Shown: positions 5,721-62,124 of the stretch, piece after piece
Position numbering within the stretch: the stretch's first letter is position 1
Layout: each line of letters opens with the position of its first letter
Assembly (NCBI GenBank): GCA_016187835.1
Contig: JACPIY010000050.1
Coordinates: forward strand, 1,369 to 65,368
Reading direction: 5' to 3'
From: Deltaproteobacteria bacterium
Lineage (GTDB): Bacteria > Desulfobacterota_D > UBA1144 > Nemesobacterales > CSP1-2
Length of the DNA stretch: 64,000 bases
Notes under the pieces: generated by a model
What the model saw: the letters and a program-made list of their open reading frames with translations, nothing else
Databases searched by the model: none
What the model was told of the DNA's origin: nothing
Translations under genes and position numbers: made by a program

Positions 5721-5878
5721 CGATTTTGGATTGCGGAATTAAAGCTTTTAACTAGCCACGAAATTTGGGTATCGGGTATTCGATTTTAGGAATGGCCAAT
5801 ACATAATATCTATATTCGTGACCATTCGTGTTCATTTGTGGCCAAACATACTTTTAAATCTGAAATCTGCAATCCGAG
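5721..5878. repeat. Nested inverted-repeat element including a copy of a ~55-bp dispersed repeat
   Basis: Outer pair ggattgcgga/tctgcaatcc, inner pair tagccacgaa/tttgtggcca; 5823-5876 is a close reverse complement of 25564-25618. Confidence 0.7.
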
Positions 5879-5888
5879 AGCCGCAATT

Positions 5889-6320
5889 TTAAACCGCTCC
5901 GCCGCTCCCCCTTAGATCATAAAAATAAAATGTCGCTCCCTTACCCTCATAAAACTTCTCCAGTGAAAGACCGAGATACTCTAACTTAGCAATGTCATCC
6001 CCTGTATATGATGTACGCTTCACTTCCTTTGAAAGTTTACAGACTATCGGAATATCATTTGTGGGATTGTCCTGAGATGTGAAGTTTAGTTGAAACTCTC
6101 CATCAATTGACATATCATTCCGAACTGCAAACCCCAAAGCCATATTGGCATTGATAAGCTCAACAACTATAACCTTCACCCTACTGCTTCCACCTTCGGC
6201 TTCTCCTACACTATCTACTTCAAATGTATAAGCGTAAAAGTTAACCGGAATGTTTTTTTCTCCCATCGAATTCAGGTACAAATAATCTTCCGAAGTTATG
6301 AAACACAGAATCTGTAACAT
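5889..6320 (-). CDS. Hypothetical protein (143 aa)
   Basis: GGAGG RBS before the ATG at 6320; no recognised motif. Confidence 0.7.
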   Translation of the reverse strand: MLQILCFITSEDYLYLNSMGEKNIPVNFYAYTFEVDSVGEAEGGSSRVKVIVVELINANMALGFAVRNDMSIDGEFQLNFTSQDNPTNDIPIVCKLSKEVKRTSYTGDDIAKLEYLGLSLEKFYEGKGATFYFYDLRGSGGAV

Positions 6321-6439
6321 TTAATCCTCCGTAAGTTTAGTAATGAATTAAAAGTGAAAGTTTTCTGTTTTTACAATTCGTAACTCTTCATTCATGACTC
6401 TACTTTGGAACTATTATCATAACATGTTTCTCTCATACT

Positions 6440-7120
6440 TTAAACCAGTCCGACGAAGCTCAGTTGCTTTCCTACTCCCTTACCATCTCTTCTATACGAA
6501 TGAAACCCGCTGTCACACTTTGTACATATATTTATTATTTCTATATCTTTGACCCCTTCTTCTACCAAGGCAATCCTATTGGCTTCTTTTAGATCGAGGA
6601 TGTATTTAGAATCATTTTTCTTCAACAGATAACTCTTCCAATTATCAAATTTATTCATAAACAAAGATGCGACATCCTCTCCAACCTCGTAGCAGCATCT
6701 TCCAATAGAAGGACCTAAGACTACGTAAACACTCGAAGGCTCGATTCCGAAGTTTTTCTCTATCTCAAGGAGAGCGGTTTTTGTAATTTGAGAAAGTGTT
6801 CCTCTCCAACCTGCATGAACTGCCGCTACAACAGAAGCAGTTCTGTCAACAAAAAGGATCGGTTGACAGTCCGCAGTAAAAACCCCTATTCCCATATCCT
6901 TTAAACTCGTCACAATCGCATCCCCTTTTTGCTCTGATTCTTGTCTAAATCCATCTTTAATCACAAAAACATTGCTGCTATGAATTTGATTCAATGTGAA
7001 AATCCTGCTCAGTCCAAAATAACTTGCAGCCTCTTCCAAACCTCCCTTGAATCCTCGATTTGAAAACCCGTGAACGATGCCGCTAATTATTGATAAATTT
7101 TCGGATTTAATCCAGCTCAT
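6440..7120 (-). CDS. pgeF: Peptidoglycan editing factor PgeF/YfiH (laccase-domain) family
   Basis: LNQIHS, FTADCQPI, VHAGWRG, CTKC..FHSYRR; downstream of rluD. Confidence 0.93.
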   Translation of the reverse strand: MSWIKSENLSIISGIVHGFSNRGFKGGLEEAASYFGLSRIFTLNQIHSSNVFVIKDGFRQESEQKGDAIVTSLKDMGIGVFTADCQPILFVDRTASVVAAVHAGWRGTLSQITKTALLEIEKNFGIEPSSVYVVLGPSIGRCCYEVGEDVASLFMNKFDNWKSYLLKKNDSKYILDLKEANRIALVEEGVKDIEIINICTKCDSGFHSYRRDGKGVGKQLSFVGLV

Positions 7121-7130
7121 AACAAATGCC

Positions 7131-7181
7131 GATTGCAGATTTCAAACTTAAAAGCGTATTCAGCCACGAATGAACATGAAT
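7131..7181 (+). repeat. Copy of the ~55-bp dispersed repeat
   Basis: gattgcagatttcaaacttaaaagcgtattcagccacgaatgaacatgaat aligns with 25567-25617. Confidence 0.7.
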
Positions 7182-7197
7182 TTACACTTTATAAAAT

Positions 7198-7265
7198 GAT
7201 GCACGATACATGATTCATGATACATGAAAGCTTCTACATGCATCCTGTATCGTGTATCTTGCATC
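7198..7265. repeat. 7-bp-unit hairpin
   Basis: gatgcac gatacat gattcat gatacat / catgcat cctgtat cgtgtat cttgcat. Confidence 0.75.
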
Positions 7266-7309
7266 CCATTTACTTTCATCAGTGTTATTTCTTGGCTAAT
7301 TAAACTTTT

Positions 7310-8296
7310 TTATTCAGCAAGTCGAGATTCTAATGTTTTAATTACTTCTTTCATATCTTCAGAGAGTGGTGCTTGAAATTCCAAATAGTCTCCACTTCTA
7401 GGATGAACAAAACCAATAGTTGATGCATGAAGCGCATGTCTTCCCAGTTTCCTTGAAACTGCATTCAAAAAATCGGAATTATGTTTTCTAGACCCATAAA
7501 CCCTGTCACCTAAAAGCGGGTAGCCGTTATCAGCAAAATGAACCCTTATCTGATGGGTTCTTCCCGTCTTAGGCTTCGCTTCAACCATTGTTACTTCCTC
7601 GTATCGTTTTATAACTTTCCATAAAGTTAAAGCTTCCTTTCCGGTCTTTGCTTTTGTAGACATTTTTATTCTATTCGTAGGATGCCTGCCTATAGGTGTG
7701 GAGAAGTAACCCGATTCCTCTTTAACTTTTCCCAAAACCAGTGCTACATAACTCTTTTTTACTTCCCGAGATTTGAATTGATTTATAAGCAACTGATGTG
7801 CAAAATCGTTTTTTGCGACAACCATCACGCCTGACGTATCCTTATCGAGTCTATGTACTATTCCTGGCCTAATCTTACCTCCTATTCCGGAAAGCCACTT
7901 GCACCTATATAGAAGAGCGTTTACCAGAGTCCCCTCTTTTATTCCCGCTCCCGGATGGACTGTTAGACCAGCAGGTTTATTCACCACTACAACATCATCA
8001 TCTTCATAAAGAACTTCAACGGGGATGTCCTGAGGTTTGGCTTCAATAGGCTGAGGAGGAAGTAATGTCACCGAAACCGTCTCGCCACCGCTTAGCTTCT
8101 TTGAGGGTTTTGTAGGCTTTCCCTCCACCAGAATAAGCCCTTCGTCAATCAATTTCCTTATCTGTGAACGGGTAAGACCGGATAGAAGATGAGAAAAAGC
8201 AACATCGGCCCTCTTACCTGAAAAACTAAGGGGTATTTGAAATGTCTCCGTATTAGCTTCTTTGCTCATAGTCTTTCTATAATCCACTTCTCTCAC
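7310..8296 (-). CDS. rluD: RluA-family pseudouridine synthase, RluD-like (ATG at 8269 may be the true start)
   Basis: S4 domain, VNKPAGLTVHP, GIVHRLDKDTSG, TGRTHQIRVH, HALHA. Confidence 0.93.
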   Translation of the reverse strand: MREVDYRKTMSKEANTETFQIPLSFSGKRADVAFSHLLSGLTRSQIRKLIDEGLILVEGKPTKPSKKLSGGETVSVTLLPPQPIEAKPQDIPVEVLYEDDDVVVVNKPAGLTVHPGAGIKEGTLVNALLYRCKWLSGIGGKIRPGIVHRLDKDTSGVMVVAKNDFAHQLLINQFKSREVKKSYVALVLGKVKEESGYFSTPIGRHPTNRIKMSTKAKTGKEALTLWKVIKRYEEVTMVEAKPKTGRTHQIRVHFADNGYPLLGDRVYGSRKHNSDFLNAVSRKLGRHALHASTIGFVHPRSGDYLEFQAPLSEDMKEVIKTLESRLAE

Positions 8297-9402
8297 TTAG
8301 CTTCTCCCTTATTCTTTTCTTGCACCATTCTCCTGGCTGTACTTGCAATAACACCGGGGAGATTTTTATTCCAAAGAAGGGCCCTGAGTTCCTTATCCCT
8401 CAGATGGCGGATAAGGTTAAGAGATATATGGGACGGTGTTTTGGGATTGTTAACCAGCGCTAACTTAACTTGGTAAATCTTAGCCCACTTACGAGCCATC
8501 GCTACCTCACGAAGTATATCCTCGTCTACTGTCTTTGATTGAGCGATATTTATAACCTCCATATCTGAAAGACGAGGATTTTTTAGTACTGCACTCGCTA
8601 CAATCCTGTTTGGGTCGCGGACGAGAATAGTTCGTGAATCCCTGTTCCCCAATATAGCAAGCTTTACCTTTTGTGCTATGTTCATCTGCTTTATTATATT
8701 GATTAGACTTTCACGCTTTTTATCACCAATGTCTTCTTCACTCTCTTCTACGAAATCCTCTGAGAAATCTATTTCATCTAAAAACGACTCCTTAATGTCT
8801 TCGAGTACCGTTGGTTCTACTTCTTCCTGAGATTCTTCCGAAGTTTCCGAATGGGATTCATATTCCTTTAGGAACTCAGGAACCGAGCCCCGTTTGCTTA
8901 AATAAAGGCTGAAAAAAGAAATCACCTTGTCGAGCGTAGATCGGCTTATTGCAGAGTTCTTACTGAGAGATTCAACAATGTCCTCCGAACGCAGAATCCG
9001 CTCCTGATTATTAGCTATGATGTCTAAAAGGGATTGGCTATGAAGGGTCTCGGCAAGGTAAACAATGGTGTTATCGCTTGTGAAATGGTTTAATATGATT
9101 CTTTGGAGTTGGGATTCGCTGTCGGTATTTCTAGCTATATAATCTAGAAGCTCTGACGGCGTAGAAGTATCGGCAAGTAAACTTACCATAACTCCTTCCG
9201 GTATAGACTTTAGAGACTTCTCAGCCTCTATACTAACTTCTTTATCTTCTTCCAAAGTGAGACCGTAAAGAACGAGGGCAAGGTCTTTTGGTGGAACCGG
9301 AATAACACCCCGTGCCGCCATAAGGCGCATCTCTCTAGGCATGGACGGGTCAATAAATTTCTTTAAGGTCTCAGGAATTTTTTCAAAAAAACCTTTCGTC
9401 AT
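8293..9402 (-). CDS. Conserved hypothetical alpha-helical repeat protein
   Basis: Long ORF; C-terminal QKVKLAILGNRDSRTILVRDPNRIVASAVLKNPRL resembles a deltaproteobacterial family; start taken at MTKGFF. Confidence 0.8.
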   Translation of the reverse strand: MTKGFFEKIPETLKKFIDPSMPREMRLMAARGVIPVPPKDLALVLYGLTLEEDKEVSIEAEKSLKSIPEGVMVSLLADTSTPSELLDYIARNTDSESQLQRIILNHFTSDNTIVYLAETLHSQSLLDIIANNQERILRSEDIVESLSKNSAISRSTLDKVISFFSLYLSKRGSVPEFLKEYESHSETSEESQEEVEPTVLEDIKESFLDEIDFSEDFVEESEEDIGDKKRESLINIIKQMNIAQKVKLAILGNRDSRTILVRDPNRIVASAVLKNPRLSDMEVINIAQSKTVDEDILREVAMARKWAKIYQVKLALVNNPKTPSHISLNLIRHLRDKELRALLWNKNLPGVIASTARRMVQEKNKGEAK

Positions 9403-9551
9403 AAGTAGCTTTATTTTAAGTAAAAATAATGGAGGATACAACTTTCCCTGATTTGCCAAACAATTGACGAAATTTGTTAGAGAATATTTCCATCTCCTCA
9501 TTTATTAAAAAATTTTTGAGCGATTTAAACAAGTTAGGAATTGAATCATTC

Positions 9552-9566
9552 TGGCATAGTTTTTGC
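9552..9566 (+). promoter_or_regulatory. sigma54 -24/-12 promoter
   Basis: TGGCATAGTTTTTGC, identical to 14610-14624. Confidence 0.65.
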
Positions 9567-9614
9567 TGTTTTTAAAATAGTAAAGATTTCGTTTTTGGAT
9601 AATTATTGGTCGTA

Positions 9615-9686
9615 TGTCATGTTGAGCGAGGCGAATCATCCCATTTGACTGAGAGCATAAGACACTTCGCTGACTTCAGTGTGACA
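9615..9686. repeat. Degenerate copy of the TGTCAT..GAGCG MITE-like palindrome
   Basis: tgtcatgttgagcgaggcgaa...cttcgctgacttcagtgtgaca resembles 3745-3831. Confidence 0.55.
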
Positions 9687-9815
9687 CGACAAGTGTTTAA
9701 CCGGAGTTGATATTATTAAAGCTAAGTTTGCGGGTTATTTTCTCTCAATGAGATGGAAATGATACGGAACAACTGGCTTAAGGTTTGGGAATATCATAAA
9801 GCTAGGAGAAATAAA

Positions 9816-10238
9816 ATGAAAAAGCACGCTATGAATCTATCACGGAACAGCTACTCCAATTCAACCATAGTCATACTAAAATGGAGTGAGGTACTCGAAA
9901 GCGCCTTTGATTACTACTATGCCGACTATGTCCCTGCCTGGGCTCTGAGAGAAACCCCTTTTAACAATACGGGAGACAAGCTCTTTATTTCAAAAAAGAA
10001 CGAAGAGTGGGTTAGCTGGGAAAAAATTGACTTGTCAGACCGGCCCGATGTGGCAACCCTATTTGACCTGCTTCCGGACTTGCCCAAGGACGAAGAATAC
10101 TGGAAGGTGGTGCGTGAAATTAAAAACAGCGGAATCGAAGACGCTGAGGATTATTTCTGGGAAAATATGTTTTCCTATAAGCAATCAAACGAAGTCAATG
10201 TGCATGGAAGAACTTACAAAATCGAGTGGGAAGCTTAA
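9816..10238 (+). CDS. Hypothetical protein (140 aa, acidic/aromatic)
   Basis: AGGAG RBS before the ATG at 9816; no recognised motif. Confidence 0.65.
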   Translation: MKKHAMNLSRNSYSNSTIVILKWSEVLESAFDYYYADYVPAWALRETPFNNTGDKLFISKKNEEWVSWEKIDLSDRPDVATLFDLLPDLPKDEEYWKVVREIKNSGIEDAEDYFWENMFSYKQSNEVNVHGRTYKIEWEA

Positions 10239-10374
10239 GCTGAACGGCTATGTAATTACCTAACACAATATAACAAATTTGAGGCTTCTTAATACAATAG
10301 AGGCAACCCTCGCAATATATAATAAGTATACAAGCAATAAACACAGACCTTGGAAACGAAAATAATGAAATAAT

Positions 10375-11208
10375 ATGGAAATATCAGCAGAACAATTCAA
10401 AACCATTTTCAATGAATCACTTGATGTAGTTATAATAATTGACCCTGCAAGTGGAAATATTCTCTGTGTAAATAACACTGTTCGCTATAGCCTCGGCTAT
10501 GAGGCGGATACCCTTATTGGAAAACATTTCTCCGCTCTTTTTTCATCCGATGGCTCGCTGAAACCAGAAAAACTTCTGGAAGAGACGCGTACCTACGGCC
10601 CGGTCTTTACAGAACAGGGTTTCCTCCGGGCAGATGGCTCTGTCTGTCCCATGGATTTGACCACAACACTGATCCCCTGGGACAATAAGGGCAATGTAAT
10701 TCTCGTTACCCTGAGAGATGTTACTGAGCAAAGGCGGGCAGAGGAGGCTTTAAAACGAAGAGAAGAACTAATAGAAAACACTTTAGACCTTATTGCAATT
10801 CTTAATGCTAGCGGAACCTTCCGCTACGTAAGCCCTTCGCATAAACGCCTACTCGGATACGAGCCTGAGGAATTAACAGGCAAAGTCGCCCTGAATCTTA
10901 TTCACCCCGATGATATCGAGGAGGTTCGTAACCGCTTCATCAACGAATTACAAAACACCAGCGTTGTCCAGTCAGGAGAGTTTCGCTTTCGACATAATGA
11001 CGGCTCATGGCGTATTCTAGAATGTATAGGAAAAGCACTTACCAACGATTCGGGAGAAACCGTTATAGTTGTTAACTCTCGCGATATCACTGAACGTAAG
11101 CGGGCAGAATCCTTACAAAGAGGACAAAACCAGGTTCTTGAAATGATAGCAAAAGGCGCTTCTTTGTCTGATGTACTGGATACCTTGATTCGGTTCATCG
11201 AAAAATAG
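10375..11208 (+). pseudogene. PAS-PAS N-terminal part of a hybrid sensor kinase, ending at a premature TAG
   Basis: Two PAS domains; continues in frame past the TAG into 11218 (IEK*SEGMLCSILL). Confidence 0.75.
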
Positions 11209-11217
11209 TCTGAGGGC

Positions 11218-13269
11218 ATGCTTTGTTCCATTTTGCTTCCAGAGCCAAACGAAGACAAGTTGCGTTATTATTCAGCACCCAGTCTACCTGAAGGCTATAT
11301 ATCCGCGATAGATCCCTTATCTATCGGGGCATGTTGTGGTTCCTGTGGAACAGCCGTCTATAGAAAAGAAGCCGTTATAGTCCCAGATATTGCTAACGAC
11401 CCATTATGGGCCGAACGGAAAGAAATAGCATTGAAATATGGAATCAAAGCCTGTTGGTCTACTCCTATCTTTTCCACAAACGGTGATGTATTAGAGACTT
11501 ACGCAATGTATTATCACGAGCCACGCAATCCAAGTACAAGCGACTTAGAGTTAATTAAAATAGCAACCCATATCGCAGGAATCTCAATTGAACACAAGCG
11601 GACTGAGGAGACACTATGGGCCAATTTGGCTCAATTGGCTAAAAAGAGCCGATATGAGACGATCGTTAATTCTGTAACTCAAAGCGTCCATAAGTCAATC
11701 AACCTCCAAGAAGTTCTAGAAAACGCATTTGAGGTAATGAGCACGAATATAGATGGAGTAGAGCATGTCGCAATTCATTTAGTGGAAGGAGAAGAAGCTG
11801 TTATCAAAGCTTATAGGGGCCACCAAGATTGGTTTGTCGAGCGTGTAAAAAGGTTACCCTATCCAAAAGGCTTTACCTGGAAGACAATCATAGAAGGAAA
11901 ACTCAGGTATTGCCCGGATGTTGACGAAGATACTGTTATTGGTCCCGCAGGAAAGGAAGCTGGAACAAAGAGCTATTTGTCTATGCCTATCTTCTGGGAA
12001 GGTAAGGCAATTGGGTGTACCAATGTACATTCTTTCAAGAAAAACGCCTTTGAGGAAGAAGAACTAAAACTGCTTGAGATTGTTGCACATCAAATCGAGG
12101 TAGCAATCAATAACGCAAAGCAGGCAGAGGCGTTGCAACAATCAGAGGAACGTTACCGAACCCTCTTTAATCAATCCCCTGTTGGCGTGTATATCTTTAA
12201 AACGAATTGCACGATTACTCATTGCAATGAGCGTATGGTTCGAATTCTTCAGTCCTCCTATGACAAGATCATAGGAGCTGACCTGCGGAAACTGAAAAAC
12301 AATTGTGTATTGCCTTTGATGGATAAGGTGCTTGTAAAACAGCCCGCTACATATGAAGGTTTCTATGAAGCGACCAATAGTTCGGCCAGGTTATGGGTAT
12401 CTATTAGGCTTTCGCCACTACGTGACGCACATCGGAATGTTATCGGTGGAATGGCAGTAGTGGAAGACACCACGGAGCGTAAGAAAATGGAAGAAAAGCT
12501 AATAAAAGCCCAAAAACTGGAATCCCTTGGGATTCTTGCTGGCGGTATTGCTCATGATTTTAATAATCTCCTTACAGCTATTCTTGGCAATATCTCCGTT
12601 ACAAAGATGTACGTAAGCCCCGAAGATAAGATATATAAAAGACTCGGTGAAGCAGAAAAAGCCTGTATTCGTACAAAGGACTTAACCCAACGACTGCTTA
12701 CCTTCTCAAGAGGAGGAGCGCCAATAAAGAAGGTAGTATCCTCCCTGGGAGAGTTGATAAGAGACACGGCTAGTTTTGCTGTGAGCGGATCCAAAGTCAG
12801 ATGTGAGTTTTTAGTTGATAAAGAGCTTTGGCCAGTTGAGATAGATGAAGGGCAGATAAGTCAAGTCATAAATAATCTTGTAATTAACGCAGACCAGGCA
12901 ATGCCATACGGAGGGGTGATAAAGATAAAAATAAAGAACGCATTGGCAAGAAATGAAGAGGGCGTCTCTTTAAACGAGGAAAGGTATTTAAAGATATCAA
13001 TAGAGGACAATGGAGTAGGAATAGGGAAGGAGTATTTACCTAGGGTATTCGCCCCCTATTTTACAACCAAGCAGAAGGGAAGCGGGCTGGGCCTTACAAC
13101 CGTCTATTCGATAATAAAGAACCATGATGGGTATATAGGAGTAGAATCGGAATTAGGTGTAGGAACGAAATTCACCATATATCTCCCTGCAACCAAAGGA
13201 GAAGAGGTAAAGAATGGAGAAGAGAGAGATCGTTGCGGAAGGTGTTGGAAGGGTTCTTGTGATGGATGA
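11218..13269 (+). CDS. GAF-GAF-PAS-HisKA-HATPase part of the hybrid kinase
   Basis: H-box AGGIAHDFNNLL, N-box NLVINADQAM, DNGVGI, GSGLGL. Confidence 0.85.
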   Translation: MLCSILLPEPNEDKLRYYSAPSLPEGYISAIDPLSIGACCGSCGTAVYRKEAVIVPDIANDPLWAERKEIALKYGIKACWSTPIFSTNGDVLETYAMYYHEPRNPSTSDLELIKIATHIAGISIEHKRTEETLWANLAQLAKKSRYETIVNSVTQSVHKSINLQEVLENAFEVMSTNIDGVEHVAIHLVEGEEAVIKAYRGHQDWFVERVKRLPYPKGFTWKTIIEGKLRYCPDVDEDTVIGPAGKEAGTKSYLSMPIFWEGKAIGCTNVHSFKKNAFEEEELKLLEIVAHQIEVAINNAKQAEALQQSEERYRTLFNQSPVGVYIFKTNCTITHCNERMVRILQSSYDKIIGADLRKLKNNCVLPLMDKVLVKQPATYEGFYEATNSSARLWVSIRLSPLRDAHRNVIGGMAVVEDTTERKKMEEKLIKAQKLESLGILAGGIAHDFNNLLTAILGNISVTKMYVSPEDKIYKRLGEAEKACIRTKDLTQRLLTFSRGGAPIKKVVSSLGELIRDTASFAVSGSKVRCEFLVDKELWPVEIDEGQISQVINNLVINADQAMPYGGVIKIKIKNALARNEEGVSLNEERYLKISIEDNGVGIGKEYLPRVFAPYFTTKQKGSGLGLTTVYSIIKNHDGYIGVESELGVGTKFTIYLPATKGEEVKNGEERDRCGRCWKGSCDG

Positions 13270-13627
13270 TGAGGAAAGCGTCAGGGAAGTTGCCGGAGAG
13301 ATGCTAAGGCACCTTGGATATGAGGTAGAGTATGCGGGAAATGGAAGTGAGGCAATACAGAAATATAGCAAGCTGAGGGAGAACGGACAAACATTCGATG
13401 TCGTAATAATAGACTTAACGATACCGGGAGGCATGGGAGGCAAAGAAGCAATGGAGAGGCTTCTGAATATAGACCCCAGAGTAAAGGCGATAGTATCGAG
13501 CGGATATTCCAATGACCCCGTCATGGCTGAGTACAATAGATATGGGTTTAAAGGAGTCGTTTGTAAACCCTATAGAATAGAAGAACTAGGAAAAACCGTA
13601 AAAGAGGTGATGAGAAACGGAAAGTGA
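13214..13627 (+). CDS. Receiver domain (frameshifted tail of the kinase or a separate response regulator)
   Basis: VLVMDDEESVR, IIDLTIPGGMGG, SSGYS, CKPY; overlaps the kinase 3' end in the +1 frame. Confidence 0.85.
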   Translation: MEKREIVAEGVGRVLVMDDEESVREVAGEMLRHLGYEVEYAGNGSEAIQKYSKLRENGQTFDVVIIDLTIPGGMGGKEAMERLLNIDPRVKAIVSSGYSNDPVMAEYNRYGFKGVVCKPYRIEELGKTVKEVMRNGK

Positions 13628-13676
13628 AAGTTTATGATTGAATAATAGAGTTAACAGTTAAGAATTATAAGGGAAT

Positions 13677-14447
13677 TTAACCCTTAATTTTCACCCTTAA
13701 CTCATCATTCACCTTAATCACATCACACGCCCTACCCCGATTAACGGAGATTTCTAAAAAACCCGAACTTCCAACAATTGCAAGAAGCTTACCTTTTATG
13801 ACATCTGCATAGGATTTGGAAAGACCTTTTATTATCCTTTTCCCTATGTAAATCCTCGACCCAGATTTTACTAGCTCTGCAGGTATGTTTGTAACAAGAT
13901 TCCCGAAGGAGTCTATGTAAATGACTTCCCCGATTATTTCATCCCTCCGCACCTCCGACTCTTTAATCGGAAGCTCGACGGGCTTCCTTAATCTTTTTCC
14001 TAAATCCCCCACCGAAACGCCAAGAGAAAGATGCGCCGCAACCGGGGCAAATATGTCCCTTCCTTGAAAAGTAAAACTTATATCAGAAAGAATGTACTTG
14101 GGGTTTTTAATTTCATAAATACTATAAGACTTTGATTCACGGTAGATAAAAGTAAAAACTCCATTATCGGGCCCTACAAAAATGTTTCCATCTACTTCTA
14201 AGGCTATAGCCTTTCTTGTACTACCCACTCCCGGATCAACAACAGCAACGTGAATTGTTTCCTTGGGAAAGTAGCGATAAAAATTCCTGAGCGTAAACGC
14301 TCCTTTAAAAATATCATGAGGTGGTATTTCGTGTGAAATATCTATGATCCTTGCAGCAGGATTTATTGAAAGGATAACTCCCTTCATTGCACCAACATAG
14401 TGGTCTTTTAGACCGAAGTCTGTAGTTAAGGTTATTATTGGATTCAT
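13677..14447 (-). CDS. SAM hydrolase / SAM-dependent halogenase family (DUF62)
   Basis: IITLTTDFG, HVAVVDPGVG, VGPDNG, TFQGRDIFAP, YIDSFGNLVTN. Confidence 0.92.
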   Translation of the reverse strand: MNPIITLTTDFGLKDHYVGAMKGVILSINPAARIIDISHEIPPHDIFKGAFTLRNFYRYFPKETIHVAVVDPGVGSTRKAIALEVDGNIFVGPDNGVFTFIYRESKSYSIYEIKNPKYILSDISFTFQGRDIFAPVAAHLSLGVSVGDLGKRLRKPVELPIKESEVRRDEIIGEVIYIDSFGNLVTNIPAELVKSGSRIYIGKRIIKGLSKSYADVIKGKLLAIVGSSGFLEISVNRGRACDVIKVNDELRVKIKG

Positions 14448-14609
14448 CCCTCTTTCTCCTTTTACATAAGAACAGAATAAGTTACCAAATTTGACAAGAC
14501 AAAAAAATGCAATTATAGCACCTGACAAAAATTGTTTTGCAATTGGCCCAAAAACTTTACTTCTTTTATAAAATCCAGCAACTTAAATAAATTAGGCAGT
14601 AAAAAACTG

Positions 14610-14624
14610 TGGCATAGTTTTTGC
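14610..14624 (+). promoter_or_regulatory. sigma54 -24/-12 promoter
   Basis: TGGCATAGTTTTTGC upstream of the 14757 ORF. Confidence 0.65.
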
Positions 14625-14756
14625 GAGTATTCTGAAAATAAGAAGCGTAGCTCAGTTTCAATCAAGAGAGAAAAAAGCGAGTGTAAGGATTCAGAATTAG
14701 AAAACCTGCCATTGAATCTCTCTACAGTTATCTGATAAACTTGCTATAAAACTCAT

Positions 14757-14978
14757 ATGAAACTTTCCATAGAAAAAGTGATTAGCTTAGGCTTTGCATT
14801 GGCGTTGCTGATTTTAGCTTTCATCGGCATAGTTTCTTATCGAACCACTGCCGAATTCATTAGTGTCGTTGAGATTCGTCAACACTCTCAGGTTCTTGAA
14901 AAACTCGAAGAGATATTTTCTCTAAGGATGACCAGAGAGGGAAGCGTGGTTACATTTATTACTTTTTTTAGATACTAA
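14757..14978 (+). pseudogene. Truncated TM-CHASE3 sensor N-terminus
   Basis: GFALALLILAFIGIVSYR...HSQVLEKLEEIFS is a typical CHASE3 kinase start; stops after 73 aa. Confidence 0.6.
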
Positions 14979-14990
14979 AGGGAGGCAGCA

Positions 14991-15431
14991 ATGACGCCTC
15001 AATCTTCTCAGTTCACCAAGCAACTTGCTAGAGTGCTCGTTATGGCTGCCGTCTACTATGTCGCGGCTAAGCTCGCACTGTTGTTAGCTATCCCTCCAGG
15101 ATATGCAACTGCTGTATGGCCAGCAGCGGGCCTCGCATTGGCCGGCGTACTGCTGTTCGGCTATGGCGCGTGGCCGGGCATCTTACTTGACTTGAATCTG
15201 CCGAAGAAAGACGGTCGTGAGGTGCTTGCGGATATAAAAGCCGATGAAAACCTGAGACGAATTCCTGTTGTAGTCCTGACTACTTCGGAGGCTGAACAGG
15301 ACATCCTCAAGGTCTTCAACTTACATGCGAACTGCTATATAACTAAGCCGGTTGACTTAAATCAGTTTGTGAAGGTGGTAAAGTCTATCGAGGATTTCTG
15401 GTTGACCATAGTTAAGCTGCCCAAAGAGTAA
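14991..15431 (+). pseudogene. In-frame chimera of a MASE1 N-terminus and the C-terminal half of an Rcp1-type receiver
   Basis: [36 protein letters not shown] joined to [41 protein letters not shown]. Confidence 0.8.
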
Positions 15432-15655
15432 ACTGATTGCGGGTCGGAAGAACAATGAACAAAAGTGAAGCGAATAAAAACACCTATAGTCTCGTCGCAA
15501 TTGTTTATTCGATTTAAACTGTAAAGAAGAACATAGAATGAACAAGCCATACAAAATTCAAAATTCTTCTAAATTGAGGGGTGGAGGTCGCGGGATGCGG
15601 AATGAAAATATTTGTGTCTTTACAACAAGATCAGATAGGCAAAGGAGAAAAGACT

Positions 15656-15838
15656 ATGAATAATTTATCCGATGTTTCAAATCTAAACTCCGAAGCTATA
15701 AAGGTTTTGCTTATCGAGGATAACCCTGGAGACGCCCGACTAATAAGGGAAATCATAGCAGATGCAAGCTCTACTCGTTTTGAGTTGACCCACACAGAGC
15801 GCCCTAGTGAAGGTTTAAGATGTCTTCGTGAAGAATGA
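15656..15838 (+). pseudogene. Truncated receiver-domain N-terminus
   Basis: AGGAG RBS; IKVLLIEDNPGDARLIRE then a stop before the phospho-Asp. Confidence 0.7.
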
Positions 15839-15842
15839 TGAA

Positions 15843-15900
15843 AGAAAAGTTAAGAATTGAAAAATCGAAAATTCTTCACTTTTAACTCCTAACTTTTCAT
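15843..15900. repeat. 7-bp-unit hairpin
   Basis: aaagtta agaattg aaaaatc / attcttc actttta actccta acttttc. Confidence 0.6.
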
Positions 15901-15910
15901 TAATAAAAAA

Positions 15911-16657
15911 ATGAAGCTCTTTATCCTAGGTTCAGGCACTTGCGTTCCGTATGAAAGAAGAGGTTCTTCGGGATATGCGCTGAAGCTCTCAAAATCGACT
16001 CTCTTGCTCGACTGCGGAAATGGAACCACGTGGAAGTTAGGAAAAGTCGGTATTAATTACCTGGAAGTAGATCATATATTTTTGTCGCATTTTCATCCCG
16101 ATCACACAGCGGATTTGATCCCGTTCTTATTTGCTACTAAATACCCCCAAGCACCTAAAAGAGAAAAACCGCTTTATATATGGGCAGCTAAGGGATTTAA
16201 AAAATTTTTCTCCGCACTACAGAAAGCATATAATGGTTGGATAGTGCCCGAAAGTCTAAATCTCAAAGAGACAAAAGAAGGTATATTTAAATTTGATGGT
16301 TTCACTTTAACGGCAAGAAAAACACCCCATATAGAAAGTAGTCTTGCATACAGAATTGAATCCAGTGGTAAATCATTAGTTTATTCAGGCGATACGGATT
16401 ATTCGGAACCATTAATTGAACTTGCAAAAGATACTGACGCTCTCATTATTGAATGTTCAGTACCAGATGAATTAAAGGTCAAAGGCCACCTTACTCCGAC
16501 TGAGGTAGTAAAGATTGCCAATGAATCGAGAGCAAAAAAAATAATAATCTCCCATCTATACCCCATCTGCGATAAAACAGATATTACCAGCGTGATTAGA
16601 GAACACACAGAAGCAGACGTAATCCTAGCCGAAGACCTGTTAGAGGTTGAAATCTAA
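15911..16657 (+). CDS. MBL-fold metallo-hydrolase, RNase Z/ElaC-like
   Basis: LGSGT, LLDCGNG, SHFHPDHTAD, YSGDT, GHLTP, ISHLYP. Confidence 0.9.
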   Translation: MKLFILGSGTCVPYERRGSSGYALKLSKSTLLLDCGNGTTWKLGKVGINYLEVDHIFLSHFHPDHTADLIPFLFATKYPQAPKREKPLYIWAAKGFKKFFSALQKAYNGWIVPESLNLKETKEGIFKFDGFTLTARKTPHIESSLAYRIESSGKSLVYSGDTDYSEPLIELAKDTDALIIECSVPDELKVKGHLTPTEVVKIANESRAKKIIISHLYPICDKTDITSVIREHTEADVILAEDLLEVEI

Positions 16658-16689
16658 ATTACAGTAAACGGCAAATCCAATTCCATTAG

Positions 16690-16960
16690 ATCCGCGCGAA
16701 ACATCACCGTCGCAGCATTAGATTGAAAGAGTACGATTATTCTCGTGCTGGGGAGTATTCCTTAACGATTTGCGCGAGGAATATAGAATGTCTACTTGGA
16801 CATATCCTGGATGAAGTTATGCAGTTGAATCAATTCGGGATCATCATTCAGTCGTGCTGGAATGAGATGCCAATTCATTTTGTAAATGTTAAGTTGGATG
16901 CGTTTATCGTCATGACCAACCAGTGCATGGGGACGTATGTGCTGTTCGCAAACCACCACT
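16690..16960 (+). mobile_element. REP-associated tyrosine transposase (RAYT/IS200-like) N-terminal remnant
   Basis: KHHRRSIRLKEYDYSRAGEYSLTIC..QLNQFG..W..MP.HF.NVKLDAFIVMTNQCMG; the HUH motif position (normally NHxHG) is degraded. Confidence 0.8.
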
Positions 16961-17013
16961 ACTTGACATTAAAACCAAACCTTGCTTTAATTGAAGAAAA
17001 GGAGGTAAACACG

Positions 17014-17895
17014 ATGGAACTAATGAAAGCAATCGGTTCAAGAAGAAGTATAAGGTTTTTTAAACCCTGGAAGCCCGTTGAAGAATGGAAAATTCAGATG
17101 ATGCTCCAAGCCGCACGATACGCATCCTGTCAGGGCAACTGCGGCTCAACCGAAGCCATAGTGATTGACAAAAGGATTTACCCGAAGGAGAAATTTGAAC
17201 AGATAATTGAATGTGCCTCTCCGTTTAATGAAATACACCTGCGTCAGGCTCCAGTCGTTATTGCGTGGCTTTTAAACCTTGATGCTTGGTATAAGGAGCT
17301 TGTTCAGTCTTTCGCCGTGCTATTCCCTTCACGAGCAATAAGTGCAGCTCATGGATGGACCTACAAACTGCTTACGGAAGTTACCTACCCTCGCCTTATG
17401 AGTTTTCCCCGCGAAAGAACTGAAGCGCTTCTTAGAATCGAGGCAGGGCAAGCAATAGCTAATGCTTTTCTTGTAGCAACAGACCTTGGACTTGGATGCT
17501 GCCTTCTTGCAACCGGAAGAAAACCAACAGAGTTTCCAAAAGTGCTTGGAACTCCTGATAACGTCGTTCCAATATGGCTTATGGCAGTAGGGTATGCTCT
17601 TGAATCTCCTGCACAAAGACCAAGAAAGCGTTTTGATCGTTTGTTTCACTTGAATGAATATGGAAACCCCCTGAAAGAAGACTCAGAGGTTAAAGAGGAA
17701 TTAAAGAGAAGAAAAATGATCCAGCCAATGGACCCCCTTCCCGGGAGAGAGGAAGAAATTAAGCACATATGCAGGATGTTTGGACTAACAGAGGCTATGC
17801 CCGACATGCCCAAAGAACATATAAAAGCTCTCTACAATGAAGACTCCCCCTATTACGGCGAACTCCCTTCTGGGCTTGAAGATAAAGGAGTGTAA
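17014..17895 (+). CDS. Nitroreductase-family (FMN) protein with C-terminal extension
   Basis: GGAGG RBS before ATG 17014; AIGSRRSIRFF, AGQAIANAFLVATDLGLGCC, LMAVGY. Confidence 0.85.
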   Translation: MELMKAIGSRRSIRFFKPWKPVEEWKIQMMLQAARYASCQGNCGSTEAIVIDKRIYPKEKFEQIIECASPFNEIHLRQAPVVIAWLLNLDAWYKELVQSFAVLFPSRAISAAHGWTYKLLTEVTYPRLMSFPRERTEALLRIEAGQAIANAFLVATDLGLGCCLLATGRKPTEFPKVLGTPDNVVPIWLMAVGYALESPAQRPRKRFDRLFHLNEYGNPLKEDSEVKEELKRRKMIQPMDPLPGREEEIKHICRMFGLTEAMPDMPKEHIKALYNEDSPYYGELPSGLEDKGV

Positions 17896-17922
17896 TACTA
17901 AACAATGGGTTTAGACCTACCA

Positions 17923-17945
17923 GGGGCAGGTTTCAAACCTGCCCC
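17923..17945. repeat. REP-like palindrome
   Basis: ggggcagg-tttcaaa-cctgcccc, same family as 4405-4430. Confidence 0.7.
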
Positions 17946-17999
17946 GCTCTCTCTTTTATGATTAACCGATAAAACTGGGATCGCTTGAATAAAAAGCAC

Positions 18000-19127: not shown

Positions 19128-19802
19128 TTCCCTGAATCCTTGCCTCTGGATGGGAAGTAGGGTCTGGAGGGAGGTTTTATCCGGTCTCCTCGTAACCTAC
19201 CTCAGGTCCGCACGGTTCCCTAAAAATTCTCGCTCTAGATCGCTACCTTGCAACCCTGTAGTAATTTTCCTGATTGTCGCTCTTAAGGCAATTGATTTCT
19301 TATTCCTTCTTCTTATATTCAAACAGGTAATTATCGTGTGTTTGATGATAGTTATAAAAAATGATAAATAAGGGGCAGACTCATTAGTGTTGCTAGTGGC
19401 TTTTTCTCGATGTCAGCCGCATGGTCAAGGTAGCAACGAGCAAGTATGTTCTGAGCTTGACGAAGGAACTCCTTGCCTACACGTTCTTAACCTATCTATT
19501 AAATCTAACAAATCAACCACGATAATGACTACAGAAGGGTTTTCCTCTTAAATCAAACATACGTTAATTAAACCGTGTCAAAAAGGAGAATTGCTATAAC
19601 TACGATCGGTCTTGTAGTACCCTTCTGGAACAATATCACGGAGGTTGAAGTAATTGAGATAGCGCAGATTCACCTATAATTATTTTCCAGCTTAAATCCT
19701 CTGGTGAAGTTGTAAACAAGCTAATCGAGAACTCGTATTAGAGTTAAAGCGATTATAAAAATGAAAACCAGGAAAGGAACCTACTAGGTTATTCTAAAGC
19801 TA

Positions 19803-45541: not shown

Positions 45542-45557
45542 TTTTAAAACAAGCTCC

Positions 45558-45633
45558 AAATCTCAAATACCAAATTCCAAAGAAAAGAATAAACCTTAAT
45601 TGTTTGTGATTTGAGATTTGCTATTTGGAATTT
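45558..45633. repeat. 7-bp-unit hairpin overlapping the murG stop
   Basis: aaatctc aaatacc aaattcc / tttgtga tttgaga tttgcta tttggaa. Confidence 0.8.
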
Positions 45634-57383: not shown

Positions 57384-57608
57384 ATGGCAACTATATTCAT
57401 TAAAATTCACGATAAGAGTGAAACAGTGTATGTTCAATCAATCATTGGCACCTACTGCCACCTTGCATGGGTAAGGACTGAAAATGTAGAAGATGGAATA
57501 ATTAAGATTATCTCCACAGATGACATGGTTAGTGAAGTAAGAGAGTTACTCAAGAAGCTTAGAGAAGAAATCGAGTTTGAAGAGCTGGAATCGGGTTTTA
57601 GGTATTAG
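57384..57608 (+). CDS. DUF4911-like small protein
   Basis: YVQSII..Y.HLAWVRT...GII.I...DMV.EV..LL..L.EEI pattern. Confidence 0.6.
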   Translation: MATIFIKIHDKSETVYVQSIIGTYCHLAWVRTENVEDGIIKIISTDDMVSEVRELLKKLREEIEFEELESGFRY

Positions 57609-57665
57609 GTGTTGGGTGTTTGGTTTTGAAGGTTAACTAACACCTGTCACCTAAAACCTGAAACC
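57594..57665. repeat. 7-bp-unit hairpin overlapping the stop codon of 57384..57608
   Basis: ggtttta ggtatta ggtgttg ggtgttt ggttttg / taacacc tgtcacc taaaacc tgaaacc. Confidence 0.85.
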
Positions 57666-57697
57666 CAATCCGGTTGTTTTAATCTGTGGCTGATTCG

Positions 57698-58624
57698 CTA
57701 CACTTTATTTTGTTCTTCAGCAGCAATCTGGAAAAACCCTCTGAGACTCGTTTTAACTCCTCTCCTCAATCCGCCCAGCTTCCCAGAGATACGAAGAAAC
57801 TTCTTTAAGTCGCTATCACGTCTTGAAATCAAATCAAACATCTCCTCCTCTCTCTCAATTCCTCTAGCTATGATTTCCTTAGCGCATTCATACCAGATCA
57901 CAAGCTGATCGCAATGTTTTTTTAGTTTCTCTTTTGCATGATCGGCAATATTAAAATGTGTGTACGCGACCAGATTCGGTTTTAGTGAAATTAGAGTCTC
58001 AATTGATTTAAGTGCAGGAGCCAATTTAAAAGGAGGCGGCGTTGCCGGAAGCACGACTTCACGGCTTGGAATATAAATCCCTGCAGCGTCCCCCGTGAAA
58101 ACGATATTTGCAGGGTAGAGAAAAATGCAAACGTGATGACTCGCATGTCCGGGTGTCGGAATAATTTCAAAATTGAGCTTTCCAAGAGCAAGGCTCATCC
58201 CTTCTTCAACGGGGATTATTCTTTCTTTGGGAACCGGCTCTGGCTTTCCGTAGATTTTTGCAACAAAACCCAGAACCTCATTTGCTGCCTTCCAGAGCAT
58301 CTTCTCCGGGTCTATAAGGTGCTGAATCCCTCTTTTGTGAGCCACGACATAAGCGTTTGGAAAGTGCCCGATAAGATTTCCTGATGCGCCTCCGTGATCG
58401 AGATGAACGTCTGTGAGCAAAAGGTACTTCACACTTTCGGGACTAAATCCAATTTCACTTAAAGCATCGAGCAAATTTTCAGCAGTGCTCGCAGGCCCTA
58501 CTTCTACTAAGGCTACGGCCTTCCCCGAAGCGACAATATAGGCTCCTGTGTACTCTTCTTCACCACCTACTTTTAAATCCACAAACCAAACGTCCGGTCT
58601 TTCTTCATTCACGGAATATTTCAT
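57698..58624 (-). CDS. MBL-fold metallo-hydrolase
   Basis: TDVHLDHGGA, TPGHASHH, FTGDAAG, YTHF. Confidence 0.88.
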   Translation of the reverse strand: MKYSVNEERPDVWFVDLKVGGEEEYTGAYIVASGKAVALVEVGPASTAENLLDALSEIGFSPESVKYLLLTDVHLDHGGASGNLIGHFPNAYVVAHKRGIQHLIDPEKMLWKAANEVLGFVAKIYGKPEPVPKERIIPVEEGMSLALGKLNFEIIPTPGHASHHVCIFLYPANIVFTGDAAGIYIPSREVVLPATPPPFKLAPALKSIETLISLKPNLVAYTHFNIADHAKEKLKKHCDQLVIWYECAKEIIARGIEREEEMFDLISRRDSDLKKFLRISGKLGGLRRGVKTSLRGFFQIAAEEQNKV

Positions 58625-58777: not shown

Positions 58778-58830
58778 GTCAGACAGGAATGTCTGACCCA
58801 CCAGATTTGGAACAGACATTCTTGTCTGTT
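58778..58830. repeat. Paired CAGACA-N4-TGTCTG palindromes
   Basis: gtcagacaggaatgtctgac and aacagacattcttgtctgtt. Confidence 0.7.
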
Positions 58831-59032
58831 ATTTCCAAGGCATGACCACTATGGCATAGCAGTCTTCAGGCTTCCACATAAATTCGTCCGCACCCCAAAC
58901 CCTCCTCGAGGGGGAAATGGGAGGGGTGAAAATAGATACCTGAATATTTCCGGCACATCATAACAATTTACCAAGCTCACACAAAACCAAAATCTTGATT
59001 GGTTTTGAGCTTGATATAAACTACACGCCGCA

Positions 59033-60601: not shown

Positions 60602-60676
60602 AGGGAAATAAGCCAGAGTTCAACTGCTTTTCTTGACTCTTCTTTCTATTTTAAAGTAATATCAATTGAGCTGATC

Positions 60677-61402
60677 ATGGGAAACGCGAAAGAATTAAGT
60701 CAGGGAGAACTTAGTGCTTTTAAGGAAAAATACGAAAAACTCCTTGCTGAGAATCCATCTTCGGTTGTTTTTGTTTTTCTTGGAGAGATTTTAATAAAAT
60801 TAGGAGAGGTTGATAGGGCAGCCGATGTCTTAATTCAGGGTTTAAAACACAATCCGCAAAATATCACTGCAAAATTCATTCTTGGGAAGATATACTATGA
60901 CAGGCAAATGATAGATGAAGCAAAAAGAGAGATGGAAGAGATCGTACAATCCGCTCCCGATAACGCAGCCGCATGCAAAATTCTCATTCAAATCTGTAGA
61001 GACGAAGGCAAACTAGACAAGGCGATTGATGTTGCCCATTCAGTCGCTTTCTTCTTTCCCGGGGATAATGAAATAGCTGAGATTATAGAGGAGTTAAAAA
61101 AAGGAATCCCCCTTGCCGAAGAAAAAGAGAAAGAGCTGCTCCTGGCTCAACAGAAGGAACATGGGTCTCCTGAATACCCCAGCGATGAAGAGCTAGAGCC
61201 CTTTTCAGGGTTATTAAAGGGTAAAATCTATACAGAGACTATGGCCGATCTCTATATGAACCAGGGATTATATGAGGATGCCTTTGAGATTCTTGCAAAA
61301 CTCTATGAACTCGATCCTCAAAATCTCTCAGTCCGGATGAAACTGGAGGAAGCCAGGGCTTATTTAGTGAACAAAATAGCTGGTTTTACGATTAGGAAAT
61401 AA
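60677..61402 (+). CDS. Tetratricopeptide repeat protein
   Basis: TPR helices; C-terminal TETMADLYMNQG motif. Confidence 0.8.
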   Translation: MGNAKELSQGELSAFKEKYEKLLAENPSSVVFVFLGEILIKLGEVDRAADVLIQGLKHNPQNITAKFILGKIYYDRQMIDEAKREMEEIVQSAPDNAAACKILIQICRDEGKLDKAIDVAHSVAFFFPGDNEIAEIIEELKKGIPLAEEKEKELLLAQQKEHGSPEYPSDEELEPFSGLLKGKIYTETMADLYMNQGLYEDAFEILAKLYELDPQNLSVRMKLEEARAYLVNKIAGFTIRK

Positions 61403-61444
61403 TGTTATATTTCATCGGCGAAGTTAGACTAATGGAAATGAGCA

Positions 61445-61500
61445 GGATGCAAGATACAGGATGCAGGATACAAGCTTGATGTTTTAATACGTCTTGTATC
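61445..61500. repeat. 7-bp-unit element with a partial inverted arm
   Basis: ggatgca agataca ggatgca ggataca ... tcttgtatc. Confidence 0.7.
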
Positions 61501-61552
61501 GTTTTATAAGTGTCAATCAGCCACTGAATAACAACTAACGAAGGATGCAACG

Positions 61553-61987
61553 ATGAAAATCTTGATAGTTCACGGACCGAATCTTAATTTGCTTGGAAAG
61601 CGAGAGCCTGAAATCTATGGAACGACTACACTTGATGAAATCAACTCACTTTTGAAAAAAGAAGCAGAGACGCTGGGAATTGAAATTGAATTTTTTCAAT
61701 CAAATTCCGAAGGCGAGATTGTAACGAAAATCCAGGGGGCAATGGGCAAATTCGATGGGGTGGTGATTAATCCTGGCGCATATACTCATACAAGCATAGC
61801 AATAAGGGATGCAGTTGCTTCGACGGGTATTTCAACTGTAGAGGTGCATATCTCAAACGTCTATAAGCGTGAAGAGTTTAGACAGAAATCTTTTATATCA
61901 GGTGTAGCAGTCGGAGTAATTTCAGGATTTGGAGTGGACAGCTACTTGCTGGGGCTTAGGGGTTTGGTAAGTTATTTGAAGAACTGA
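61553..61987 (+). CDS. aroQ: Type II 3-dehydroquinate dehydratase
   Basis: [30 protein letters not shown]. Confidence 0.97.
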
Positions 61988-62030
61988 ATTTTTAGCTACG
62001 AATTAACACAGATGAACACGAATCAAATAG

Positions 62031-62124
62031 AAATTCCAAATAACAAATCACAAATTTCAAACAAGTTTCAAATTCTAAATGCTTGGCAATTGGAATTTGT
62101 TTGTGATTTGGAGTTTGGTCATTG
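62031..62124. repeat. 7-bp-unit hairpin
   Basis: aaattcc aaataac aaatcac aaatttc / ttggaatttgtttgtgatttggagtttgg; preceded by a partial copy of the 55-bp repeat (acacagatgaacacgaat). Confidence 0.8.

Follow-up and report, generated by a model that had tools for sequence, protein, structure and literature searches.

The DNA analyzed here is a 64,000-nucleotide stretch (referred to as the window) that corresponds to positions C48:1369-65368 of a 2.86-Mb metagenome-assembled genome (MAG) of a member of the Deltaproteobacteria, obtained from groundwater; this genome comprises 107 contigs at 41.5% G+C and is labeled G000, while the genomes of its relatives are labeled G001 onward and the relatives' individual loci are labeled with an L (L052, L058, etc.). 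Conserved genes of the window, with pgeF, rluD, ribD, nadD, murC, murG, and aroQ confirmed among them, are flanked by short hairpins whose two arms are built from tandem units of 7 nucleotides (nt), and these hairpins probably represent gene-less forms of a palindromic insertion element family.

Heptamer Hairpins at Gene Ends in the Window

A preliminary description, made from the letters alone, had proposed ten sites at which tandem 7-mers are followed by inverted 7-mers. These sites were folded as RNA on the gene strand, each against 200 shuffles; seven of the ten fold significantly with period-7 arms, and for each of the seven none of the 200 shuffles was as good. Among the other three, the proposal stands in part for 61445-61500, which is half-decayed, is marginal for 13624-13715, and fails for 6330-6400. 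The sites are as follows.

5721-5878: composite element with outer arms of the CGGATTN type at 5721-5745 and 5850-5878, which enclose about 105 nt; fold of 5727-5876, containing the outer CGGATTN arms, z -3.5
6330-6400: unsupported as a family member; z -1.0, with 34 of 200 shuffles folding equally well
7198-7265: GATNCAN hairpin of four units, a 10-nt loop, and four inverted units; -29.8 kcal/mol, z -6.2
13624-13715: AGTTAAG-type hairpin, marginal and probably decayed; z -2.1, 9 of 200 shuffles
15838-15904: AGTTAAG-type hairpin, its first base at the upstream stop codon; z -2.9
38218-38290: GAGTTAA-type hairpin, its right arm with additional unpaired units; z -4.3
45549-45636: CAAATNN hairpin occupying the whole murG-murC junction (minus-strand genes); fold of 45555-45636, z -3.7
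57590-57669: GGTNTTN hairpin in a convergent gap; fold of 57591-57668, -40.6 kcal/mol, z -6.5
61443-61500: GATNCAN half element in the gap between a tetratricopeptide repeat (TPR) gene and aroQ, whose left arm has four units and whose right arm is reduced to a stub; z -1.75
62031-62124: CAAATNN hairpin between aroQ and a 577-amino-acid gene at 62227; fold of 62021-62124, z -5.0

The heptamer changes between sites with the period and the fold kept, in agreement with the earlier view of one family defined by structure, and no match to Rfam 15 at the gathering score was obtained within the window. The hairpin at 7198-7265 separates the stop codon of rluD (7310, minus strand) from the start of pgeF (7120), and that at 15838-15904 lies between an open reading frame (ORF) at 15581-15838 and an RNase Z-like gene at 15911-16657. 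Furthermore, three gene ends that had been noticed to overlap the repeats (murG TNSK*, ribD RVKSYE*, and GFRY* of ORF 57384) were all found inside arrays: the hairpin at 45549-45636 provides the last codons and stop of murG, that at 38218-38290 codes the final residues and stop of ribD upstream of nadD, and that at 57590-57669 provides the C-terminus GFRY* of ORF 57384-57608.

Two further observations concern the surroundings of these hairpins. An extended -10-like motif, ATGTGATAATAT, lies at 38297-38310 just 5' of nadD and is conserved at the orthologous sites in G001, G002, G005, G007, and G009; because of this motif, nadD may own a promoter, with the hairpin placed between it and the ribD stop. 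Gene content also varies directly beside the GGTNTTN hairpin at 57590-57669, where a 308-amino-acid gene (57698-58624, minus strand) is found in G000 and L054 and is absent in L052, L057, L058, and L059.

Genome-Wide Census and Anatomy of the Arms

The preliminary description had suggested that the whole genome be examined for a period-7 excess combined with inverted symmetry. In a sliding autocorrelation of 21 comparisons per step, in which at least 17 matches were counted as a region, the excess is strong: period 7 gives 70 regions and period 14 gives 42, compared with 3-13 for other periods and 1-3 in a control third-order Markov sequence. When the inverted partners of arrays were scored against random controls, the partner exceeded the 99th percentile for 54 of 115 period-7 arrays, and an independent inverted-repeat scan returned 353 hairpins versus 43 in the control, with period 7 as the sole strongly periodic class. 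The union of these sets comprises 78 heptamer hairpins in about ten word families, which is a lower bound because the union catches just five of the window's sites. The families include GATNCAN (31 copies), CAAATNN (14), GGTNTTN (9), CAGAAGN (6), CGGATTN (5), TAGTNTT (4), and TAGTTGA (3), among others. A pattern of three consecutive GATNCAN units has 197 matches in G000 and 162-310 in seven other genomes of the same family, with none for the reversed control, and is missing from G003 and from most order-level relatives. The possibility of local hopping was rejected, as the same word recurs in 9 of 28 neighboring hairpins versus 5.8 expected (p = 0.10).

Each arm consists of three to six units with about five fixed and two free positions per heptamer. 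For instance, in GATNCAN, positions 1, 2, 3, and 6 show at least 99% conservation and 87% of units have C at position 5, while the free positions are 4 (A.33, G.46, T.18) and 7 (all four bases). At these free positions, 68% of cells are paired in the chosen register, compared with 30-37% after a shift of one arm by 7 or 14 nt, which indicates that the arms are true inverted copies whose free positions lock the hairpin in one register. Arm mismatches of the G-U type number 51 on the sense strand and 59 on the antisense strand, with 161 of other types and no sense-strand preference; this strand symmetry points to copying or correction of the arms at the DNA level, rather than to selection on one RNA. 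A 'three-frame stop' design was also considered and discarded, as stops in all three frames occur in 38% of hairpins versus 45% of control intergenic segments.

Insertion and Turnover at Orthologous Junctions

Comparison with relatives bears out the earlier suggestion of insertion at four junctions (murG-murC, rluD-pgeF, ribD-nadD, and TPR-aroQ), at which relatives are compact or carry another word or a half copy. At murG-murC, CAAATNN hairpins are present in G000 and G002, a GGATACG hairpin in G007, degenerate GATNCAN repeats in G001 and G009, and, in G004, a complete CAGAAGN hairpin beside the right half of a CAAATNN hairpin; the junction is compact (about 10-25 nt) in G003, G005, and G008 at the family level and in four of five order-level relatives, and the order-level G015 has a long gap of unrelated sequence. 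Between rluD and pgeF, about 190 bases are inserted in G000, and the two genes overlap (ATGA) or lie no more than about 20 nt apart in ten relatives. The ribD-nadD junction is compact in three order-level relatives, with a GTGANTC array in G004 and a GTAG-type palindrome in G002. The TPR-aroQ gap measures 17-24 nt in three relatives of 60-62% identity; the left arm of its GATNCAN hairpin survives in G000, only the right arm is found in the 86% relative L052, and the right arm is intact in a relative of about 92-96% from sediment and soil metagenomes.

Changes of the same kind are seen at other sites of the window. The CAAATNN hairpin at 62031-62124, downstream of aroQ, is missing from L052 (86% at the amino acid level), and ORF 57384 ends in approximately ...EIEFEE(V)... 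in all relatives, the stretch that holds GFRY* being replaced by other sequence in a relative of about 96%. In a relative at that same distance, a single substitution and a single indel in the loop are the differences across 76 nt of the murG-murC hairpin, and because this hairpin is so nearly unchanged, hypermutation of the free positions is not indicated. Taken together, these comparisons show the hairpins to be DNA insertions relative to cistron junctions that appear ancestrally compact or overlapping, and show that different words, half copies, and composites occupy one junction in different genera, so that the elements evidently turn over. Near the TPR gene, two 60-62% relatives (L058:7554-9869 and L059:7554-9751) have about 2.2 kb between the 59033-type gene and the TPR gene versus 76 nt in G000.

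Position Relative to Genes

Among 70 intergenic copies in the genome, 65 separate co-directional genes, 4 separate convergent genes, and 1 separates a divergent pair. Since tandem gaps make up 70% of the background by count and 60% by length, this bias exceeds chance (p = 9e-6 by count and 8e-10 by length), which sustains the earlier placement of the hairpins at gene 3' ends. Once the hairpin is subtracted, the median gap left is 49 nt, versus 298 nt expected for random per-base insertion in intergenic DNA (0.1 percentile 202). With respect to the upstream gene (n = 65), the stem starts inside the gene in 11 cases and at most 30 nt past the stop in 29, and it is more than 70 nt away in only 5. 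A separate class of hairpins inside ORFs was dropped, as three of its four cases are short, probably spurious ORFs. The stems are AT-rich and lack the G+C-rich stem plus sense U-tract of intrinsic terminators; a run of at least six T follows the stem on the sense side in 7 of 65 copies versus 17 of 65 on the antisense side, and a terminator scan of window positions 1-20000 placed no hairpin site among its predictions.

Link to PF05635 Four-Helix-Bundle Genes

Heptad arrays had been named in the preliminary description as neighbors of four-helix-bundle genes and of GxxExxY genes, and neither kind of gene had been seen in the window. Neither is there: the genome holds seven TIGR02436 matches, confirmed as PF05635, all of them on other contigs. 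The link holds for the four-helix-bundle genes, six of the seven being enclosed by inverted heptamer arrays (GGGNTTC, TAGTTGA, TAGTNTT, GATNCAN, and CAAATNN twice), and is not supported for GxxExxY genes, of which none was found anywhere in the genome. The hairpin-enclosed layout recurs, with many different words, for about 33 of the 42 PF05635 genes in 14 genomes of this family, and the cassette gene is co-directional with its upstream neighbor in 29 of 33 determinable cases. In the protein tree, clades across genomes share a word, namely CAAATNN (four proteins from three genomes), GATNCAN (three genomes), AGTCAGN (three genomes), and GACCGNA (three proteins from three genomes), from which it follows that the heptamer word evolves in concert with the cassette; some close pairs bear related yet altered words, such as AGTTGAT versus AGTCNAN.

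Two candidate ideas on cargo were pursued and set aside: a search for other cargo between distant inverted arrays surfaced only neighboring hairpins of the same family, and the loops of GATNCAN hairpins, considered as remnants of cargo genes, share no common sequence.

Certain cassettes have features of their own. At G000 C67:25562-28045, an 827-amino-acid ORF of a DUF1156-type DNA methylase contains a PF05635 cassette that has GGGNTTC arms; the methylase frame is open across the entire cassette (about 170 codons) and differs from the frame in which the PF05635 gene is read. The arrangement has the appearance of a tolerated in-frame insertion and recalls the palindromic elements found in Rickettsia genes. 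In L157 and L158 (from G011 and G008, respectively), a conserved promoter-like stretch, TGTGATAATGGATGTATAAT, is located within the hairpin, 5' of GATNCAN-clade PF05635 genes, and some cassettes may accordingly carry their own promoter.

Copying between Loci, the Decamer Module, and Other Repeats

The hairpins at C101:43601 and C84:36314 share 97% identity across 94 nt that include the loop TGAAAGGAATTTACCTT, and their flanks are unrelated; a third copy at C12:25059 is 88% identical to this pair, and the window copy at 62031 shares its right end and flank motifs with the C84:36314 copy. The 97% pair is direct evidence that a member of one subfamily was recently copied to a new locus.

A second repeat, with a period of 10 nt and the consensus GCCACGAAT-TGACACGAAT-GAACACGAAT, accompanies the hairpins in about 20 genome copies, four of them in the window, against a chance expectation of 0.04. 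The decamer modules of the window and the solo arrays near them are as follows.

5824-5843, minus strand: decamer module inside the 5721-5878 composite, with its own small inverted repeat
7125-7154: solo CGGATTN-type array, GCCGATTGCAGATTTCAAAC, an inverted copy of 5850-5878
7162-7181, plus strand: decamer-repeat module, AGCCACGAAT-GAACATGAAT, 17 nt from the 7198-7265 hairpin and pointing to it
25560-25617, plus strand: CGGATTN-type array followed by a decamer module (25598-25617), without an inverted partner; absent from the list of the preliminary description
62004-62023, plus strand: decamer-repeat module, immediately 5' of the 62031-62124 hairpin

In the module's own orientation, a heptamer array follows 3' within 10-30 nt in 12 of 20 cases and lies 5' in 2 of 20. 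The adjoining arrays belong to at least three word families, and the orientation of the module with respect to transcription is not fixed. The module is found family-wide and is absent in order-level relatives; the copies often form inverted pairs 50-160 nt apart and, in G004, also lie beside GATNCAN arrays. The decamer module may be a terminal or recognition site.

Several other palindromic repeats share this genome. A separate REP-like (repetitive extragenic palindromic) family with GTAG...CTAC feet, such as GTAGAGACGCAT tgca ATGCGTCTCTAC, occurs genome-wide, for example at C2:27931, C4:19196, and C8:5617. Its window copy, GTAGGAGC...GCTCCTAC, at 62162-62215, lies 5' of gene 62227, and L052, the 86% relative, conserves it. 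A dispersed palindromic repeat, TGTCATTCTGAACGGAGCGCAG ... CTTCGCTCAGAATGACA, is found at window positions 3745-3831 as well as at C48 ~65750-65900, C10:12537-12604, and C5:21500-21750. In addition, strong inverted repeats of the CAGACAGGAATGTCTGAC type lie at 58780-58828 and 58969-59016 of the window, 5' of gene 59033, and are related to C4:33-93; in this region, relatives of about 96% have 138 other letters in place of 293 nt.

Y1_Tnp genes (PF01797, IS200/RAYT-type) have 12 matches in G000 and up to 20 in the family, compared with 0-2 in genomes without GATNCAN arrays; this expansion of Y1 (HUH) enzymes is confounded with phylogeny and with the GTAG...CTAC REP-like family.

Interpretation and Alternative Explanations

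On balance, it is probable that the hairpins of the window are gene-less representatives of a palindromic insertion-element family resembling the intervening sequences (IVSs) of 23S rRNA, that they are co-transcribed with their host genes, and that they are cut by RNase III. The elements are found almost exclusively between co-directional genes, at the upstream stop codon or within about 30 nt past it, and sometimes replace the last codons. With no U-tracts and a location inside transcription units, the hairpins would be transcribed together with their host genes, and the transcripts would form stems of 20-35 pairs. A 3'-end RNA processing signal, the other possibility raised in the preliminary description, is plausible only indirectly. 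RNase III would cut these stems, as is known for the heptamer-built stem in the Coxiella IVS; such cutting is plausible because of the stem length, the location in transcription units, and the presence of an RNase III gene (rnc) in the genome, and cutting would make the insertion tolerable and would separate the flanking cistrons without ending transcription. The candidates for the insertion enzyme are a PF05635 protein (Avd-like) acting in trans and the expanded Y1 (HUH) transposase.

Several observations weigh against this interpretation. The junction bias could partly reflect the survival of insertions rather than their targeting, and co-transcription and RNase III cutting are steps that we infer. 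In none of the relatives examined is PF05635 cargo present at any of the four orthologous junctions, and a PF05635 profile run over all fetched loci of the relatives gave its sole match at the unrelated locus L098; the earlier idea of 'empty' sites, in the sense of sites that formerly held cargo, is therefore not supported. GATNCAN hairpins are abundant in G002, G004, and G014, where no GATNCAN-clade PF05635 gene was found, and are also common in the PF05635-free G001, G012, and G028, so that, within the limits of MAG incompleteness, gene-less hairpins appear to persist and probably spread with no cognate cargo in the genome. Moreover, most copies share the heptamer grammar only (best identity times coverage, median 0.36), unlike a simple copy-and-paste miniature inverted-repeat transposable element (MITE), and the balance of sense and antisense mismatches (51 versus 59) gives no positive sign of selection on an RNA fold. 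Finally, the analysis identified neither an insertion enzyme nor an excision event, and it revealed no target-site duplication, the filled and empty junctions being too diverged to place the ends.

A broader proposal, which is offered tentatively and is itself rather doubtful, would unite the heptamer hairpins, the PF05635 proteins, and the decamer module as one undescribed class of mobile element that targets stop-to-start junctions of co-transcribed genes. Each protein lineage would recognize its own 7-nt word, in a code in which protein and word drift together, gene-less hairpins would be mobilized in trans, and the 23S rRNA IVS would be the special case of a landing in rRNA.

In place of selfish insertions, the hairpins might be RNA stem-loops selected by the host at operon junctions to stabilize the upstream 3' end or to set relative expression, for which the REP stem-loops of Escherichia coli operons serve as a model. 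The strong bias toward co-directional junctions close behind stop codons, the stable folds, the conservation of the murG-murC copy in a relative of about 96%, and the similar placement of the heptamer arrays of Xanthomonas (PMC4692102) are all what such a role would predict. However, the mismatches have no sense-strand wobble bias, the function would be dispensable because many relatives have a compact junction at the orthologous site, half elements show that copies decay, and hairpins are found beside the decamer module whichever way it points with respect to transcription; as the period-7 grammar and the words shared with PF05635 cassettes are also left unexplained, host selection is an unlikely explanation.

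It is quite improbable that the arrays are DNA binding sites for a regulator or nucleoid protein, in which the inverted layout reflects dimeric binding instead of a folded hairpin. Near-invariance of five of the seven positions within a word family with free variation of the other two, the change of words in concert along PF05635 clades, the strand symmetry, and the annotation of similar arrays in Geobacter (PMC2700814) would fit binding well. Nevertheless, the free positions are complementary in one register (68% versus about 32%), which is needless for binding; moreover, about ten words coexist in one genome, many without a candidate cognate protein, and the sites lie at 3' ends rather than at promoters, with a single copy in a divergent gap.

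Neutral by-products of replication, growing in place through slippage that favors 7-nt units together with quasipalindrome template switching, would account for the variable unit number, the strand-symmetric mismatches, and the unrelated loops, and an over-representation of heptamer simple sequence repeats has been published with a slippage hypothesis (as cited in PMC4692102). This process is nonetheless a highly improbable source of the family, given that it leaves unexplained the same two free positions at about 31 independent GATNCAN sites, the occurrence of GATNCAN in many genera with a reversed control of zero, the junction bias, the 97% identical pair, and the enclosure of PF05635 genes. 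The notion that the hairpins are factor-independent or unconventional transcription terminators capping genes is scarcely credible despite their stable stems straight behind stop codons, because the stems are AT-rich with T-runs more frequent on the antisense side and no U-tract, convergent gaps are depleted (4 observed versus about 11 expected), and copies are present within the dcw operon and between two genes that ancestrally overlapped.

Significance

Tandem heptamer repeats have long been recognized as over-represented in bacterial intergenic DNA. The PF05635 '23S rRNA IVS protein' family, which is Avd-like and present in thousands of copies, has to our knowledge no known function. Heptamer repeats, the PF05635 family, and rRNA intervening sequences have been described separately, none of them being explained, and the present genome shows the first two as one architecture. 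The mechanism is constrained by the preference for co-directional junctions that are otherwise few bases long, the one-register arms, and the turnover of words, and further by protein clades that track words and by a second conserved module beside hairpins of different words. If the elements are indeed mobile and cut by RNase III, they would represent a widespread way to split operon transcripts and to remodel gene ends through new C-termini and stops, and PF05635 proteins would gain a testable ligand in the heptamer hairpins.

Comparison with Known Systems

The nearest counterpart is the 23S rRNA IVS. In Coxiella burnetii, the S23p IVS has a 28-bp stem with three tandem GACAGAT units, a copy number that varies between strains, and RNase III cleavage in the stem, and in the ORF-bearing IVSs of Coxiella and Leptospira, the stem encloses a PF05635 gene and the element is regarded as selfish (PMC4990558). 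The likeness lies in the long terminal inverted-repeat stem with tandem heptamers, and six cassettes of this genome have the exact layout. However, the window copies are gene-less, a single genome holds about 80 or more copies in about ten word families, and all copies lie between (once within) protein-coding genes rather than in rRNA helices 25 or 45. A 23S rRNA gene that might carry an IVS was looked for in the MAG and is absent.

Heptamer arrays of the form (GGGANTN)n or GGGGAYT in Xanthomonas and Nostoc, mostly of about four units with 70-75 close inverted pairs per genome, have been read as G-quadruplex formers, and closely related species differ in the length and sequence of the arrays (Rehm et al. 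2015, PMC4692102). Similar to the present hairpins, they have fixed and free positions, are intergenic and nearer to the end of the upstream ORF, and mostly have co-directional neighbors; however, theirs are G-rich, whereas the words here are AT-rich (GATNCAN, CAAATNN, GGTNTTN, AGTTAAG) and many per genome, and PMC4692102 draws no link to PF05635. In Geobacter metallireducens, paired heptanucleotide and octanucleotide arrays bear the annotation 'global regulator binding sites' (Aklujkar et al. 2009, PMC2700814); they likewise form several classes of three to five tandem 7-8-nt units in opposite-strand pairs at variable distance with dozens of copies, but they have been read as protein-binding or RNA regulatory sites, and PMC2700814 does not analyze insertion, junction bias, or cargo. 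The TAACTGA repeats of Beggiatoaceae, Cyanobacteria, and Bacteroidetes (169 direct sets and 1 indirect) lie just 5' of start codons (PMC4679880). They and the cyanobacterial short tandemly repeated repetitive (STRR) sequences resemble the present arrays as intergenic tandem heptamers that are abundant in certain lineages, but TAACTGA is a single word in direct repeats, whereas the elements here are inverted pairs behind stop codons with many words.

In contrast to integron attC sites, the flanks of the hairpins are core genes in conserved synteny (dcw, ribD-nadD, rluD-pgeF), intI itself not having been searched for. REP sequences and bacterial interspersed mosaic elements (BIMEs), with their REP-associated tyrosine transposases (RAYTs), and RNase III-cleaved MITEs such as the Neisseria Correia elements are short palindromes with many copies at gene 3' ends, which are co-transcribed, alter mRNA processing or stability, and are mobilized in trans. 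The heptamer hairpins differ from the REP/RAYT system in that they have no GTAG foot, their arms are tandem heptamers with family-specific words, and no cognate transposase was identified; as regards the near-identical copies typical of MITEs, one pair is 97% identical with a third copy at 88%, and most copies share word grammar alone. A full-text literature search found no paper that ties PF05635 genes to heptamer hairpins beyond the Coxiella IVS. Gene-less inverted heptamer arrays are already known from Xanthomonas, Nostoc, and Geobacter, and what is found here is the multi-word, gene-less form at operon junctions of IVS-like or heptamer-array elements.

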